Below are positions 4,429 through 19,295 of a stretch of 64,000 nucleotides of DNA, piece by piece. The DNA comes from Burkholderiales bacterium. Its GTDB lineage: Bacteria; Pseudomonadota; Gammaproteobacteria; Burkholderiales; JALYOK01. The stretch lies in the NCBI GenBank assembly GCA_046598945.1, contig JBKJHT010000202.1, positions 5,222-69,221 of the forward strand. The letters run 5' to 3'. Under the pieces are notes generated by a model that saw only the letters and a list, made by a program, of their open reading frames with translations, was not told where the DNA came from and made no database searches. Every line of letters starts with the position of its first letter. Position 1 is the stretch's first letter. The translations under genes and the position numbers were made by a program.

Positions 4429-4582
4429 CTACGGAAGCTCTGATTTATTGGAATTATTTCGAGTTCTAAGCGAGACAAGGCGCGAGTGAAAAACGTCGAT
4501 CCAGCATATGTTGGATATGTAGGGAGACATTTTTTGCGAGCAACGACGTATCGCGACGAAATCGGAATAAATCAGAGCTTTC

Positions 4583-4966
4583 CTAGTGTAATACCCGCGG
4601 CACGCTCAGCACAAATTCGGGAATGTTCGCATCAAATTTTGTGCCATCTTCCGCAACCATTTGATAGGTTCCGCGCATCGTGCCCACCGGTGTTGCGATG
4701 GATGAACCACTGGAATATTGGAAGCTCTCCCCCGGCCGCAAATACGGTTGTTCGCCGACCACGCCGAGGCCGCTGACCTCCTGCACTTGGTTCGACGCGT
4801 CGGTAATGATCCAATGGCGACGCAATAACTGCGCGGCCACGCCGCCAGTATTGGTAATCGTTATTGTATAAGCAAAGACATAGCGATTTTCCTGCTCGTC
4901 GGATTGCTCCGGAACAAAGGTCGCTGCTGCCTGCACGGAAATGTCGTACTTATTATTTTCAGCCAT
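4583..4966 (-). CDS. apaG: ApaG (DUF525) protein
   Basis: ApaG pattern YVFAYTITITNTG...QLLRRHWIITD...GEQPYLRPGESFQYSSG. The start is moved to the internal ATG at 4966 (MAENNKYDISV), giving the usual length of about 127 aa. Confidence 0.85.
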   Translation of the reverse strand: MAENNKYDISVQAAATFVPEQSDEQENRYVFAYTITITNTGGVAAQLLRRHWIITDASNQVQEVSGLGVVGEQPYLRPGESFQYSSGSSIATPVGTMRGTYQMVAEDGTKFDANIPEFVLSVPRVLH

Positions 4967-12516: not shown

Positions 12517-13296
12517 ATGAACACGCTCAACATCGCGGACGTAAAAGCGGAAGCACGCAATCTGAATTTCTATTACGGCGCGTATCAGGCGCTGAAGAAT
12601 ATTAATTTGCCGGTCGCGGACAAAAAAGTGACGGCGCTGATCGGGCCGTCCGGTTGCGGCAAATCGACGTTTCTGCGTTGCTTTAATCGAATGCACGATT
12701 TGTATCCGGGTAACCGCTACGAAGGCGAAATATTTCTCAAGCCGGACAACGTCAACGTGTTGGCCCACGGCGTCGATCCGATCGAAGTACGCATGCGCAT
12801 CAGCATGGTGTTCCAAAAACCGAACCCGTTTCCCAAATCCATCTTCGAGAATGTCGCCTATGGGCTGCGGGTACGCGGCGTCAAAAACAGGGCGTTGCTA
12901 GAGGAAAAAGTTGAAACGGCATTAAAGGGCGCCGCGCTGTGGAATGAAGCGAAAGATCGTCTTAACGATCTTGCGTTTAATTTATCCGGTGGCCAGCAGC
13001 AACGCTTGTGCATCGCCCGCGCGCTGGCGACGGATCCGGAAATTCTGCTGTTCGACGAACCGACCTCCGCACTCGACCCGATCGCCACGGCGAGCATCGA
13101 AGAACTGATCGCAGAATTAAAGAAAAAAGTCACCATCCTCATCGTCACCCACAACATGCAGCAAGCCGCGCGGGTGTCCGACTACACCGCCTATATGTAT
13201 CTGGGCGAGTTGATCGAATTCGATAACACCAACACGATTTTCATTAAACCGAAAAATAAACAAACGGAAGATTACATCACTGGGCGATTTGGATAG
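12517..13296 (+). CDS. pstB: Phosphate ABC transporter ATP-binding protein PstB
   Basis: Walker [10 protein letters not shown], signature LSGGQQQRL, Walker [13 protein letters not shown], and the PstB-specific C-terminus [10 protein letters not shown]. Confidence 0.95.
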
Positions 13297-13500
13297 TTTC
13301 GGGGCATTGCCGCGATTGTCGGTAAAATTGAGCCGCTCCTGGTTTTGTACTATTGTCGTTAGCGTCCTAGGCCAAACCGGCCTTGGGAAAAAATAAATCG
13401 TCTCGTAATCTCTTTCGCCTGGGTTCTTTTCCCTGACACAAGGCGCCACCAGGCCTTGCCTAGTGGGCTGGAAAACTAACAACTGTTTGGAAGAGTAATT

Positions 13501-13995
13501 ATGACGGTTTCACGTCGAGATTTTTTCAAAATCGGTCGTAGCGTTGCCGCCGGTGCGGGATTAGCTGCGGCAGTCGATGCCCAAGCTGCCACCGCCACCG
13601 CAACACTCACCTATAAACCCAAAAGCGTAGGCAAGGCCGGCGGTATGGCGTCAAACGCGCCTATCACGTTTCAGTTTCCCGATGCATCCTCCCCTTGTGC
13701 CGCGATCAAGATGGGCGCGCCGGTTCTGGGTGGCGTTGGGCGGAACAAAGACATCGTTGCCTACTCGACCCTTTGTACCCACATGGGCTGCCCGGTCGCC
13801 TATGACGCCGACAAACGAACCTTCAATTGCGCCTGCCATCTCAGCATGTTTGACGTAGAAAAGGGCGGCCAGATGATCTGCGGTCGCGCGACGGAAAACT
13901 TGCCGTGCATCGTGCTTAAATACAACGACAAAACCGATACCGTGACGGCGGTAGCCGTCGATGGCTTGATTTACGGCCGTCAAGCGAACATCTAA
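13501..13995 (+). CDS. aioB: Arsenite oxidase small (Rieske) subunit
   Basis: Tat signal SRRDFFK and Rieske ligands CTHMGC ... CACH(LSMF). About 164 aa, directly upstream of aioA-homologous sequence. Confidence 0.85.
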
Positions 13996-13996
13996 G

Positions 13997-15040
13997 GAGA
14001 CGATCGTTACGACGAGAAAAGACCGTGTCGCACTTCCACCGGTGAGCGCTAAGAAATCCAATTTGGTCTGCCATTTCTGCATTGTGGGCTGTGGCTATCA
14101 CGTCTATAAATGGCCGGAGAACCAAGAGAGCGGCCGTGCGCCGAATCAGAACGCGCTGGGGTTAGATTTTTTCAAGCAGTTGCCGCCATTGGCGGTCACC
14201 ATGACGCCGGCGATGACCAACGTCATCACCGATCACGACGGCAATCGCCACAACATCATGATCCTGCCGGAAAAGAATTGCTCCGTGAACCAGGGCTTGT
14301 CGTCGCGGAGATGGCAAAACGCTTCGCCGGCTTCGACTGGAAGACCGAGGAAGATACCTTTAACGACGGCTTCCGTACCCGCGGCCAAAAAAACGCGCCG
14401 CCGATCGATAGCCAAGGTGGCGGCACCGGCAACCTCGCCACCTATGAACGTTTAGCTGCCGCCGGCAACAATGGCGTGCAGTTGCCGATCAAGGAATATA
14501 AAAACGGCAAGCTCATCGGCACGGAAATGCATTACATGGATGCCAAATTCGATGCGAGCGATGGCAAAGCGGAATTCAAGCCCGCGCCGTGGCCCGGGTT
14601 GCCCAAGCCCGTGCAAGCGCAAAAGGATAAGTACAAGTACAAGTTCTGGATCAACAATGGTCGTGTGAACGAAGTGTGGCAAACGGCTTATCACGATCGA
14701 TGCAACGATTTCGTGCGCGGTCGTTTCCCCATGGCTTTCATCGAGATCAATCCTGACGATGCTCAAACAATGGGAGTTGGTGGCGGCGACATCGCCGAGA
14801 TTTTCAACGATTATGGTTCGACTTACGCAATGGCCTACCCGACGCCGGAGATTAAGATGAATCAAACCTTCATGCAGTTTGGCTAACTTAACGGCATTGT
14901 CAGTGACGTCACCACGCCTTGGAGGGATCGCAATGTCGTACCCTAATTACAAAGGAACGTGGGCGAATTTGCGACGCGTGGGATCGATGGAAGAATACGA
15001 ACGCACGGTCAGTTTCAAAAACCCTCGCTACGGCGCTTAG
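13997..15040 (+). pseudogene. aioA: Arsenite oxidase large subunit remnant (internal deletion, premature stop and frameshift)
   Basis: In frame 2, 13997-14305 encodes the AioA N-terminus ([31 protein letters not shown]...NQGLSS). In frame 1, 14305-14883 encodes the C-terminal third ([23 protein letters not shown]...QTFMQFG). TAA follows at 14884-14886, and after a +1 shift near 14944-14946 the sequence reads [32 protein letters not shown] to the stop at 15038-15040. The homologous total is about 347 codons, against about 825 in characterised AioA. Confidence 0.85.
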
Positions 15041-15111: not shown

Positions 15112-15486
15112 ATGGAAATAAATGACGCTGTCTCCTCGCTTGCCGCATTAGCCCAAGAATCGCGGCTGGCTATTTATCGTCTGTTAGTGCAAGCCGGTCC
15201 GGCAAGGATGGCGGTTGGTAGCATCGGAGAAAATCTCGGCATTCCCGCTGCGACATTGTCGTTTCACTTAAAGGAATTGACTCGCGCTGAACTCATCACC
15301 GCGCGTCAAGACGGCCGCTTCATTTATTACTCAGCGAACTTTCCGCAGATGGCAGCGTTACTCGGATACCTCACCGACAACTGCTGCCGCGGAATGCCGC
15401 AGGAATGCCTAGGGGTGATGGAAACGGCGCTTGCGGAATGTTGCGCACCCAAGCCAAAATCTAAATCTAAAAGGAATTGTGTATGA
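15112..15486 (+). CDS. arsR: ArsR-family metalloregulator with C-terminal Cys cluster
   Basis: Winged-HTH core (SRLAIYRLL...IGENLGIPAATLSFHLKEL...GRFIYY). Cys91/92/99 and Cys110/111 lie in the tail. It is the first gene of the ars operon. Confidence 0.85.
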   Translation: MEINDAVSSLAALAQESRLAIYRLLVQAGPARMAVGSIGENLGIPAATLSFHLKELTRAELITARQDGRFIYYSANFPQMAALLGYLTDNCCRGMPQECLGVMETALAECCAPKPKSKSKRNCV

Positions 15487-15974
15487 AACGATTTCATGTC
15501 CATGTCGCCGTGAGCGATCTCGAGGCGAGTGTCAAATTCTATTCCGCAATGTTTGCGACTGTTCCGAGCGTGCACAAGCCCGATTACGCCAAATGGATGC
15601 TCGACGATCCACGCATCAATTTCGCAATCTCCCAACGGGGCCTCGCTCCCGGCGTCGATCATCTGGGTATTCAAGTCGATAGCGAAGACGCCTTGGATGA
15701 GTTGCGTCAACAAGTCGCCGGCGCGGAAATTGAAGCGTCGGCGCAAAACAAGGCGGCTTGTTGCTACGCGGAATCGAACAAATACTGGACTACTGATCCG
15801 CAAGGCATTGCCTGGGAAACCTTTCATACCCTCGGTGATATTCCGACCTTCGGCCAAGATACGAAAACCACTTCCGGTGAGTCGGCCAATGCTTGTTGCG
15901 CGCCGCAGCCGGAACGTCAAACAATAGGATTTTTCTCCCGGCCTGATCGGGCGCAAGTGCCCGAGACAAAGTGA
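15483..15974 (+). CDS. arsI: ArsI/CadI-type glyoxalase-fold (VOC) protein, putative C-As lyase
   Basis: The ATG overlaps the arsR stop (ATGA). VOC fold with a vicinal Cys pair in AACCYAESNKYWTTDPQGIAWETF, resembling the ArsI substrate-binding pair. A second CC pair lies near the C-terminus. Confidence 0.65.
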   Translation: MKRFHVHVAVSDLEASVKFYSAMFATVPSVHKPDYAKWMLDDPRINFAISQRGLAPGVDHLGIQVDSEDALDELRQQVAGAEIEASAQNKAACCYAESNKYWTTDPQGIAWETFHTLGDIPTFGQDTKTTSGESANACCAPQPERQTIGFFSRPDRAQVPETK

Positions 15975-15982
15975 GGTGAGCC

Positions 15983-16468
15983 ATGGCCTACAATGTATTA
16001 TTTCTGTGTACTGGCAACTCCGCCCGTAGCATCTTGGCGGAAGCCATACTCAACGCCGAGGGCAAAGGGAAATTCAAAGCCTACAGCGCCGGTAGCCATC
16101 CCTCCGGGAAAGTCAATTCGTTTTCAATCGAGTTGCTTGAACAGCGCCGCTATCCCACCGACGGGCTACGCAGCAAAGCCTGGGATGAGTTTGCTGCGCC
16201 CGGCGCGCCGGAGTTGGATTTCGTTTTTACCGTGTGCGATAACGCCGCCGGCGAAGTGTGCCCGGTCTGGCCCGGCCAGCCGATCAGCGCCCACTGGGGA
16301 GTTGAAGACCCCGCGGCGGTTGAGGGTGCCCACGAGGAAAAGCGCAAGGCGTTTGTGAAAGCCTTTGCCGTTTTGCAACGCCGCATTTCGCTGTTCGCGA
16401 GCCTGCAGTTAGATCAACTCGATCGCGTCTCACTGCAAACCAAACTGCGCGACATCGGCAAGCAATGA
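15983..16468 (+). CDS. arsC: Arsenate reductase, LMW-PTP (thioredoxin-coupled) type
   Basis: P-loop LFLCTGNSARS, and a downstream Cys pair in FTVCDNAAGEVCPVWPG. Confidence 0.85.
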   Translation: MAYNVLFLCTGNSARSILAEAILNAEGKGKFKAYSAGSHPSGKVNSFSIELLEQRRYPTDGLRSKAWDEFAAPGAPELDFVFTVCDNAAGEVCPVWPGQPISAHWGVEDPAAVEGAHEEKRKAFVKAFAVLQRRISLFASLQLDQLDRVSLQTKLRDIGKQ

Positions 16469-17130
16469 CCCTTCCGCGCCGTTTGGCCGCCGAGGCCATC
16501 GGCACGGCGCTGTTGCTCGCCATTGTGGTCGGCTCCGGCATCATGGGCGAGCGTTTATCGCAAGGGAATGATGCAATCGCCCTGCTGGGTAATTCCATCG
16601 CCACCGGCGCCGGACTCGCTGTCCTGATTTTTCTCTTCGCGCCGATTTCCGGCGCGCATTTCAATCCCGTCGTCACCCTTATCGAGGCCATGGAAGGTAA
16701 GTTGATTTGGCGCCAAGCACTGGCTTATGTTCCGGTGCAAATCGTCTCCGCGCTCGCCGGCGTCGCGGCCGCACACTTGATGTTCGGCGAGGCGCTATTC
16801 ACGCCGAGCGAGCACGCGCGCATTGGCCCGAGCCAGTGGTGGAGCGAATTCATCGCCACCTTTGGTTTGATCCTGGTCATCAAGCTCAGCGTGCGCAACC
16901 ATGCCGCGGCCGTTCCACTCACAGTCGCCGCCTACATCACCGCCGCATACTGGTTTACCTCGTCAACGTCCTTTGCGAATCCGGCAGTCACCATCGCGCG
17001 CTCGCTCACGCCGACATTCGCCGGAATTCGGCCCGACGGCGTGCCGGGATTTATCATCGCGCAGGTGGTCGGCGCGGTCGTCGCGGCAAAATTCGCGAAG
17101 TGGTTCGTCGATTCGCAATCAAAACATTAA
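16465..17130 (+). CDS. aqpS: MIP-family aquaglyceroporin-like channel (AqpS-like arsenite channel)
   Basis: The ATG overlaps the arsC stop (ATGA). Two MIP signature loops, SGAHFNPVVT and NPAVTIARS. Its position in the ars operon is where arsB/acr3 would normally sit. Confidence 0.75.
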   Translation: MTLPRRLAAEAIGTALLLAIVVGSGIMGERLSQGNDAIALLGNSIATGAGLAVLIFLFAPISGAHFNPVVTLIEAMEGKLIWRQALAYVPVQIVSALAGVAAAHLMFGEALFTPSEHARIGPSQWWSEFIATFGLILVIKLSVRNHAAAVPLTVAAYITAAYWFTSSTSFANPAVTIARSLTPTFAGIRPDGVPGFIIAQVVGAVVAAKFAKWFVDSQSKH

Positions 17131-17298: not shown

Positions 17299-17853
17299 CT
17301 ACCTTATGATGAACACGTCGTATTTCACGTAGCCGCCTTCGCCAATTTTTACCTCGACTACCTTATTGATCGCCTGAACGCTATTCAGCCAAGCGTACTT
17401 TTCCGACGAGGTCTGGAACGTCGGCGCGGTGATGAAATACGGGATATCCTTAGTCATCAACAATTCACCCTTATTCAGTTTCTCAGCGCTTTCTTTTGAG
17501 TGCTGAATGATGCCGTTGTAAGTGATGTAGATAAGCTGGTCGTCGTCGGTTTTTAAAGTTGCGCGGACATCAAGTCGCAATACACCGGAGGGCATTATGC
17601 GTAGCCAGTCCGCGCCGGGCGAAATGAATTTTCCGTTGATCTTTGGGCCTTTTGCCCAACCACCTGGGGCGACGTTGACTATGATAAGGGAGTTATCGAC
17701 GGCGTTGGGTGGCTCAAGTAGAGCGACGTACGTCATTAGATATTCGGTCTTGAGTTCTGTAGTTTGGGCGTGGGAGCTAGACGCGGTGAACATTAGTACG
17801 CTGTTGAAAATACCCAGTGCGGCGAAATAGCCGATGCGAATTGTCATTGCCAT
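17299..17853 (-). CDS. Secreted DUF3237-family protein
   Basis: Signal peptide (MFTASSSHA). DUF3237-like pattern PGADWLRIMPSGVLRLDVRATLKTDDDQLIYITY...YFITAPTFQTSSEKYAWLN. The gene is visibly AT-richer; two 60-nt lines counted at 42-45% GC. Confidence 0.65.
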   Translation of the reverse strand: MAMTIRIGYFAALGIFNSVLMFTASSSHAQTTELKTEYLMTYVALLEPPNAVDNSLIIVNVAPGGWAKGPKINGKFISPGADWLRIMPSGVLRLDVRATLKTDDDQLIYITYNGIIQHSKESAEKLNKGELLMTKDIPYFITAPTFQTSSEKYAWLNSVQAINKVVEVKIGEGGYVKYDVFIIR

Positions 17854-18083
17854 CCTCCGATCGTTGTTAAATGACTAGCTGGAATCGTCACGGCGCAAGG
17901 GACTTTTTGATGCAAAAACCAGGCGACCCGGCAGGAATAATCTTGATGCACATTCAACGCGGCGGTCAATATGTCGAAAGTAGTATGTCGAAAGTGATAG
18001 ATCTTCGAAATTTTGAATTGATCTCGGCGCAATCGAAAGTTCGACGACCGGAAACGCCTAGGCGATAATTCGGCGTTATAAAC

Positions 18084-19295
18084 ATGGCGGAGGGACTGCG
18101 TGTGAAAATATTTCTTAGCTATGCCTCGCAGGACCGGGAGATCGCGCAGGCAATCAATCGGGCCCTTCTGGAGCAGGGGCACGATGTGTTTTTCGATCGT
18201 GAAGACCTACCGCCCGGTGAAGAATTCCACATTCAGATTCGGCGCGCGATTGAGGGGGCGGATTTGTTCGTGTTCCTCGTAAGTGAGCACGCGATCGATT
18301 TGGGTAGCTACACGCTGAACGAACTCGACATTGCAGAGAAGAAACTAAAACAGGCGTCCGGACGGCTGTTGCCGGTGTTGTTGCGGCCAACGCCGTCAGA
18401 CCGGTTGCCTGCGTTCGCGAGGTCGGTAACCTTGCTGCAATCGCCGGGAAATATCCCGGCCGCGGTTGCTGACGCGGTGCATCGCATCGCGACCAAGCGC
18501 CGTCGCGGGCTGCTGTGGAAGGTTAGTGGCGGCGCGGTGGTGCTTGCGTTCATCGTTGCCGGCGTTTGGTTTGCGCGTTTTACCGGCTCGCCGGCACAGA
18601 CGATCACCGGCAACGATGGCGCGCCCGCAGTGTTGCTGCCCGCCGGCAATTTCACCATGGGCGACGACGAAGAATCGCCGCGCCGCGAGCTTTATCTCGA
18701 TGCGTTTTACATCGACCGCTTTGAGGTGACGACCGCGCGTTATGCGAAATTTCTCGCCGCCACCGGGTCCATGCGTCCGCCGGACGGCTGGGAGACGCTC
18801 GATCTGAGCCGCGGCGCAGAATTACCGGTGGTCGGTGTCGACTGGAACGATGCTGCTGCCTATTGCAAGTGGGCCGGTCGCCGTTTGCCGACCGAAGCGG
18901 AATGGGAAAAGGCGGCGCGTGGCGCGGACAACCGCCGTTACCCGTGGGGCGACGCATTGCCGGCACTTGACCGCGCGAACTATGAGAATGCGTCGCCGGA
19001 AGCCTACAATGGTGGTCTCGCGGCGGTGGGTACCCATGCGCCGGGTCGCAGCCCGTTCGGCGTTGACGATCTCGCGGGAAACGCCGCCGAATGGGTCGCC
19101 GATTGGTATTCGGATAGTTTTTTGCGCAGCGATGTGCGTAATCCGAAAGGGCCGGAAATCGGAACGGCGCGGGTAGTCCGCGGTAGCGGGCGATTTGATC
19201 CGAGCGAACGTCTCATCGCCACCAAACGCTACCATGCCAATGCGGATCTCAGGAGAGAGGACATTGGATTTCGCTGTGCGCGGGATGTGCGGTAG
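18084..19295 (+). CDS. TIR domain / single TM helix / FGE-sulfatase (SUMF1-like) domain protein
   Basis: N-terminal TIR pattern (KIFLSYASQDREIA, ADLFVFLVSEHA, SYTLNELD). KRRRG followed by the helix LLWKVSGGAVVLAFIVAGVWFARF. C-terminal FGE-sulfatase motifs (LLPAGNFTMGDDE, RLPTEAEWEKAARG, DLAGNAAEWVADWY, IGFRCARD). The start could instead be GTG 18102 (VKIFLSY). Confidence 0.8.
   Translation: MAEGLRVKIFLSYASQDREIAQAINRALLEQGHDVFFDREDLPPGEEFHIQIRRAIEGADLFVFLVSEHAIDLGSYTLNELDIAEKKLKQASGRLLPVLLRPTPSDRLPAFARSVTLLQSPGNIPAAVADAVHRIATKRRRGLLWKVSGGAVVLAFIVAGVWFARFTGSPAQTITGNDGAPAVLLPAGNFTMGDDEESPRRELYLDAFYIDRFEVTTARYAKFLAATGSMRPPDGWETLDLSRGAELPVVGVDWNDAAAYCKWAGRRLPTEAEWEKAARGADNRRYPWGDALPALDRANYENASPEAYNGGLAAVGTHAPGRSPFGVDDLAGNAAEWVADWYSDSFLRSDVRNPKGPEIGTARVVRGSGRFDPSERLIATKRYHANADLRREDIGFRCARDVR

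Follow-up and report, generated by a model that had tools for sequence, protein, structure and literature searches.

The 64-kb stretch of DNA analysed here (hereafter the window) carries, side by side on the plus strand, an open reading frame for the Rieske small subunit of arsenite oxidase (aioB) and the broken remains of the gene for its large subunit (aioA). The locus sits in an arsenic island beside pst and ars genes, and this layout, with aio next to pst/ars, is described as near universal in a passage of PMC4853749, citing Li et al. (2013). An AioB scan of species-representative genomes gave two syntenic loci, L002 (CAVQPB010000021) and L003 (JANOLP010000270), whose AioB proteins are 88% and 84% identical to that of the window. 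Both have the genes in the conserved order trpE-pstSCAB-aioB-aioA-arsR-arsI-arsC-MIP, as does the window, and the sole break in it is the deletion within the window's aioA. The cluster 3' of aioA (15112–17130) consists of arsR, an enzyme of the ArsI/CadI family of VOC proteins (NF041414, 131.9 bits), an LMWP-type arsC and a 221-amino-acid MIP channel, a set also carried by L002 and L003, and neither arsB nor acr3 was found in it. Further downstream on the plus strand (18084–19295) lies a gene for a 403-amino-acid protein in which a TIR domain (PF13676) is fused to an FGE-sulfatase domain (PF03781), conserved in L002 (16010–17224) and L003 (~17518–18710). A ~135-nt element at 4451–4586 shares 78–79% identity with two opposite-strand segments of L002 (2389–2518 and 15155–15291), one of them directly 3' of the MIP gene of the arsenic cluster, and may be a small dispersed repeat. 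An Rfam scan of both strands of the whole 64 kb returned no family at gathering score, tRNA included.

Two further contigs, L165 (ERZ28573545) and L166 (SRR20217217), carry intact aioBA and are 88–91% identical to the window at the DNA level. Because of this distance we assign them to sister lineages, other species than that of the window, and they hold what appear to be the nearest intact copies of aioBA; a search with a repaired full-length AioA query gave no intact AioA above 94% amino-acid identity, the hits lying on these same two contigs, and an AioB scan of JGI metagenome contigs gave no match above 69% identity. Closer relatives came from the window's own annotation, since the 202-amino-acid product called by NCBI from TTG 14278 (P0001) leads a cluster, formed at 90% identity, that includes seven ENA members. 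Three contigs were retrieved from this cluster, L162 (35.9 kb), L163 (15.6 kb) and L164 (1.9 kb). They are metagenome consensus contigs, for which a MEGAHIT short-read origin is suggested by their 'k141' names alone. Finally, L001 is an independent Logan assembly (SRR31159454) that overlaps the 5' part of the locus. The features of the aio locus, all numbered by window position, are the following:

13489–13495, plus strand: ribosome-binding site of aioB, GGAGGAG in L002, L003, L162 and L163, changed to GGAAGAG (A at 13492) in the window and L001 only
13501–13995, plus strand: aioB, Rieske small subunit, a 164-codon ORF that is open and apparently unconstrained; TIGR02694 (arsenite_ox_S) 187.3 bits against a cut-off of 95.65
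14006–14008, plus strand: former aioA start codon, ATG in L002, L003, L165 and L166, GTG in L162 and L163, GTT in the window and L001
14006–14304, plus strand: aioA 5' fragment, codons 1 to ~100, 3Fe-4S domain; positions 1–79 of 96 of PF18465 (Rieske_3) and 1–95 of 806 of TIGR02693
14304–14306, plus strand: deletion junction, 1456 nt missing (gene nt 300–1755, codons 100–585 of L003), with G14305 assignable to either side
14305–14943, plus strand: aioA 3' fragment in a shifted frame, codons ~586–796 of the intact gene; TIGR02693 positions 584–774 and PF01568
14629–14634, plus strand: in-frame 6-nt tandem duplication AAGTAC (KYKYKF for KYKF), absent from L002, L003, L162, L163 and L164
14884–14886, plus strand: premature stop TAA in place of Tyr (codon 777 of L003), TAC in L163 and L164, TAT in L002 and L003, GAC in L162
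14945–14946, plus strand: +1 insertion of A, the second frameshift (CCC TA[A] TTAC); all relatives read CC(C/T)TA(T/C)TAC
14947–15040, plus strand: aioA 3' tail in the original frame, aligning to the C-terminus of L003, L163 and PDB AioA, with the ancestral stop TAG at 15038–15040

The aioA remnant thus spans 14006–15040 in three frame segments. Its joined fragments align with Alcaligenes faecalis AioA (PDB 8RTM, 1G8K) with E=1e-158, query residues 8 to ~101 matching residues 3 to ~98 and query residues 102–345 matching residues 581–823. The 3Fe-4S motif C-x2-C-x3-C is kept in the 5' fragment as CHFCIVGC. Pfam recognises on the fragments only PF18465 (3Fe-4S) and PF01568 (C-terminal dinucleotide-binding), the molybdopterin domain PF00384, which occupies residues 120–574 in L003, being wholly deleted. 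Scored against TIGR02693 (arsenite_ox_L), the fragments reach 139.1 and 268.5 bits, each below the 359-bit cut-off for a full-length AioA equivalog, compared with 1293.6 bits for the intact protein of L003.

Lesions were mapped by DNA alignment to the intact syntenic genes of L003, L165 and L166, with L002 also aligned, the window fragments being added with MAFFT addfragments. Gene order is alike in the window and in these four loci, which come from related uncultured Pseudomonadota, at 79–91% nucleotide identity, but they have an unbroken aioA of 827 codons that begins with ATG, as in L003, whereas that of the window is broken; the one exception is a +1 frameshift (+A) at codon 787 of L002, near the 3' end, which is possibly a long-read error. 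Split ORFs are seen in the 'MFD' long-read MAG loci of the comparison set, with aioA split in L002 (12866), L005, L021, L038, L041 and L043 and pstB split in L002 (9010–9796), and consensus indel errors may lie behind them instead of true pseudogenes.

The alignments establish the lesions of the window's aioA and their polarity. The original prediction, made from the sequence of the window alone, had proposed that an N-terminal part of AioA is joined out of frame to a C-terminal part at ~14305, with ~480 codons including the molybdopterin core missing; we indeed find the junction at 14304/14306 and a 1456-nt deletion that takes the reading from frame 1 to frame 3 and, in removing codons 100–585, all of PF00384. 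Microhomology at the breakpoints amounts to 1 nt at most, and L163, a same-species contig that lacks the deletion, has no direct repeat there, so that the deletion is illegitimate, not repeat-mediated, and cannot have arisen by repeat collapse in assembly. A 4-nt GCGG microhomology at the junction was ruled out, since with it five bases absent from the window would remain. The predicted change of Tyr to stop at 14884–14886 agrees with the TAT or TAC found at the aligned codon of relatives, and the extra A proposed within the codons of PYYKGTW is likewise missing from all of them: this base creates the frame-3 TAA at 14944–14946, and its removal restores VVPYYKGTW and the reading through to TAG 15038–15040. 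The 6-nt duplication at 14629–14634 adds to the lesions listed at the outset. Relative to full-length AioA, the lesions therefore lie where they had been placed, with the exception of the start codon. Its loss had been correctly recognised, but the ACG at 14009 suggested as the mutated start is in fact the codon of Thr2, the start position being the GTT at 14006–14008; no start-type codon comes in frame before the GTG at 14042. Because L162 and L163 read GTG and four outgroups ATG, the history of this codon is read as ATG to GTG on the species stem, followed by GTG to GTT in the window's strain.

No uninterrupted aioA ORF with a start codon is left, given that GTT stands in place of the start, that the frame changes twice and that a TAA lies within, and expression by programmed frameshifting or readthrough is ruled out by the missing start codon, the internal TAA and the absent catalytic domain. 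With clear homology to AioA, disabling lesions when compared with intact orthologues in conserved synteny, and constraint relaxed in comparison with neighbouring genes (see below), the window's aioA is, judged from its sequence, a multi-lesion pseudogene and a dead remnant. A functional arsenite oxidase is accordingly not possible from this locus as we read it, and a second intact aioBA or an arx locus may exist outside the 64-kb window.

The same-species contigs carry aioA at full length, the 1456-nt deletion being absent from L162, L163 and L164, and yet the gene is broken in all three. L162 and L163 share 98% identity with the window over 6.3 kb, from trpE-pstSCAB through aioB to the 5' sequence of aioA, L164 covers aioA only and overlaps the window solely in the 3' part of this gene, and in that 3' part the three contigs are 95.3–95.8% identical to the window. 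Their lesions differ from those of the window and in part from each other: L162 and L163 both lack one base at codon 141 (−1) and carry an additional A at codon 613, L163 alone has a −1 at codon 197 and a Cys to Phe change in the CHFC motif, L164 has a +G at codon 390, and L162 alone has lost the stop codon. The small subunit is damaged as well: in L162 a +T close to the 5' end shifts the frame and the CTHMGC box carries G96D, and in L163 the start codon has changed from ATG to TTG and C127G is present. In these contigs an ISAZ013-family DDE transposase gene on the minus strand begins right after the aioA stop (L163 8499–9037, L162 8495–8767, L164 1727–1863), in the position held by arsR in the window, which has no copy; each contig ends inside the transposase gene.

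We consider it very probable that the aioBA operon has been abandoned by selection and is decaying independently in each strain of one uncultured proteobacterial species. A narrower version of this account would have a single lesion in aioA, either the −1 at codon 141 or the ATG to GTG change, begin the decay, with the rest following. The start codon change is indeed common to L162, L163 and the ancestor of the window, and the codon-141 site falls inside the segment deleted in the window and outside L164, so that the −1 could be ancestral to all. However, GTG is a functional start codon in bacteria, and no lesion with a scorable site in two or more lineages was found to be common to all of them. 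A founding lesion, which we regard as rather improbable, would in any case be a sub-variant of operon abandonment and not a true alternative to it; the cause of the abandonment would seem to be ecological or regulatory.

The small subunit gene looks sound at first reading. As originally predicted, aioB (13501–13995) is open, with a Tat signal and the Rieske ligands: its 164-codon product retains the twin-arginine motif SRRDFFK and the Rieske and disulfide boxes C92-T-H94-M-G-C97 and C110-A-C112-H113, passes the equivalog cut-off of TIGR02694, and aligns over residues 34–164 with A. faecalis AioB of the PDB (E=3e-54). Eight replacements have nevertheless accumulated on the window branch (G13R, S44G, P76L, P81R, F114L, A119V, Q129R and R136C), all present in both the window and L001, and six of the eight are residues absent from that position in 160 homologues. 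P81R and Q129R hit positions invariant in these 160 sequences; 2 of the 39 family-invariant columns thus deviate in the window, and none deviates in 158 of the 160 other sequences. Q129 belongs to a G-Q-A-T-x-x-L-P segment, which probably corresponds to the 'Pro loop' that lies over the cluster in bc1-type Rieske proteins. The ribosome-binding site also appears weakened by the G to A change at 13492, with a presumed effect on translation.

Substitution counts obtained by the Nei-Gojobori method for the window and L163 agree with this picture, and the counts against L162 are identical. The flanking genes (trpE, pstSCAB) have 51 synonymous and 16 non-synonymous differences, pN/pS 0.10; the values are 6.5, 15.5 and 0.76 for aioB and 15, 28 and 0.52 for aioA, both different from the flanks by Fisher test (p=6e-5 and p=2e-5, respectively). 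Relaxed constraint is therefore evident on both genes. With a pN (0.041) about equal to the pS of its flanks (0.043), aioB probably escaped constraint at or before the divergence of the strains. Changes polarised by outgroups give the same contrast, with non-synonymous to synonymous ratios at the tips of 19:13 for the aio genes on the window branch and 21:1 on the L162/L163 branches, against 6:25 and 4:17 for the flanks. The 19:13 of the window branch is below the ~3:1 expected under strict neutrality, which suggests that the genes were still constrained along part of this branch. The reading of the two aioA fragments, described at first as otherwise clean, was overstated, since, of 87 columns without variation among 112 intact AioA sequences, 4 deviate in the window (leave-one-out mean 0.21 for intact sequences), the same fraction as the 2/39 of aioB. 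No excess of non-synonymous change in aioA emerged from a three-taxon codon test with L002 and L003 (5:45, compared with 35:369 in controls), because at ~80% identity the branch belongs mostly to the time before constraint was lost; the signal of relaxation appears in an amino-acid relative-rate test and, clearly, in the same-species comparison. ArsR (15112–15486) has 10 window-specific replacements, compared with 9 on the other two branches combined, a ratio that resembles those of the aio genes in what is a three-taxon comparison only, L162–L164 ending before arsR.

These results bear on whether selection might keep AioB for a role that does not involve AioA, such as that of a Rieske electron carrier serving a different enzyme. 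Such a role would account for the open ORF with its Tat motif, all four cluster ligands and the disulfide cysteines, for a TIGR02694 score well above the cut-off, and for the aioB of L163, which is intact as an ORF. It is difficult to reconcile with a pN/pS of 0.76 next to flanks at 0.10, with lineage-specific replacements mostly unseen among homologues and reaching the invariant P81 and Q129, with the weakened ribosome-binding site, or with the frameshift and G96D of L162 and the C127G and TTG start of L163, and we judge it highly unlikely. Retention of aioB alone had been called unusual in the original prediction, a view that we do not share: small disabling lesions in the aioA copies amount to ~1–3 per kb per lineage, and at this density the probability that a 495-nt aioB carries none is ~0.25–0.6, so that its open frame needs no special explanation. 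The window's aioB is best regarded as an open but unconstrained relic whose intact frame is within chance, and its product is probably non-functional.

Part of the evidence above relies on one assembly, and it may be asked whether the organism has an intact aioA, its apparent deletion, stop and frameshift being products of mis-assembly, strain chimerism or consensus errors of a MAG. The NCBI contig of origin seems to derive from a metagenome, and the split aioA ORFs of the long-read MAG loci mentioned above (L002, L005, L021, L038, L041 and L043) are maybe indel errors. L001 matches the window at 1086 of 1087 bases over 13143–14229 and confirms the GTT start codon and every aioB variant, but it ends 75 nt before the junction, so that the junction, the TAA and the +A are spanned by this one assembly; look-ups of exact proteins (ORFs 14110–14886, 14042–14455 and 14311–14886, ArsR and P0001) found no independent contig. 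On the other hand, with at most 1 nt shared and no repeat at the breakpoints, joining the two parts would need reads spanning the junction, two of the lesions are substitutions (GTG to GTT and TAC to TAA), the former seen in the independent assembly, and the +A lies outside any long homopolymer run. Moreover, the other genes of the 64 kb are undisrupted and of canonical ORF length, among them the 14-gene nuoA-N operon, tpiA, secG, pst and the ars genes, and the non-synonymous excess, the changes at invariant sites and the independently broken copies in three other assemblies point to real decay. An artefact is thus scarcely credible as the source of the aioA lesions.

Taken together, our results suggest the following course for the abandonment of aioBA. 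Selection on the operon would have ceased in the common ancestor of a species-level population, most likely before or around the divergence of the strains. In the window's strain, aioA has lost its start codon in two steps, ATG to GTG on the species stem and later GTG to GTT; an illegitimate deletion of 1456 nt has removed the molybdopterin catalytic domain and shifted the frame, and the gene has also gained a premature stop, one inserted base and a duplication of 6 nt. In aioB, which has met no frame-breaking lesion yet, replacements are building up at the neutral rate, including some at invariant residues near the Rieske cluster. The proposal that inactivation was recent holds on the scale of species divergence, the sister lineages L165 and L166 (88–91%) and the more distant L003 having kept aioBA intact. 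As a tentative extension, which we think less likely to be right than wrong, the differently broken aioBA of every sampled strain might reflect a recent species-wide ecological shift, through release from arsenite or a Black-Queen-type reliance on neighbours. If this were true, the extinction of an operon would be recorded here as a natural time series, and metagenomes would show directly in what order and at what rate the types of lesion arise.

A practical point concerns gene surveys, where arsenite-oxidising potential is often scored by aioA and aioB markers: this genome would count as positive for aioB, and through P0001 also for aioA, yet it would make no enzyme from the locus. An open ORF beside a pseudogene is likewise not the same as a retained gene, and here within-species pN/pS and checks of invariant sites exposed an aioB without constraint. 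As biology, the case is a tidy but ordinary one of parallel decay of a dispensable operon, and it opens no long-standing question.

In comparison with the AioBA of A. faecalis (PDB 1G8K, 8RTM, 8CFF) and Rhizobium sp. NT-26 (4AAY, 5NQD), the locus has the same aioB-then-aioA order and a Tat signal on AioB only, but its large subunit lacks codons 100–585 and a start codon and contains a nonsense codon and a frameshift, and its small subunit has Arg at positions 81 and 129, where A. faecalis AioB has Pro and Gln. A literature search found discussion of gene loss from arsenic islands and no description of an aioA pseudogene series. The decay of bacterial pseudogenes under deletional bias, in which a dispensable gene is inactivated independently and in parallel in separate strains, is reportedly the subject of work by Mira, Ochman and Moran in 2001 and by Kuo and Ochman in 2010. 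The window and its related strains resemble that process in their small lesions together with one large illegitimate deletion, in pN/pS approaching 1, in strain-specific lesions and in an IS beside the locus in some strains. There is no difference in kind, and the locus is a new instance of ordinary, well-known pseudogene decay, in this case in an arsenic-metabolism operon of an uncultured lineage.
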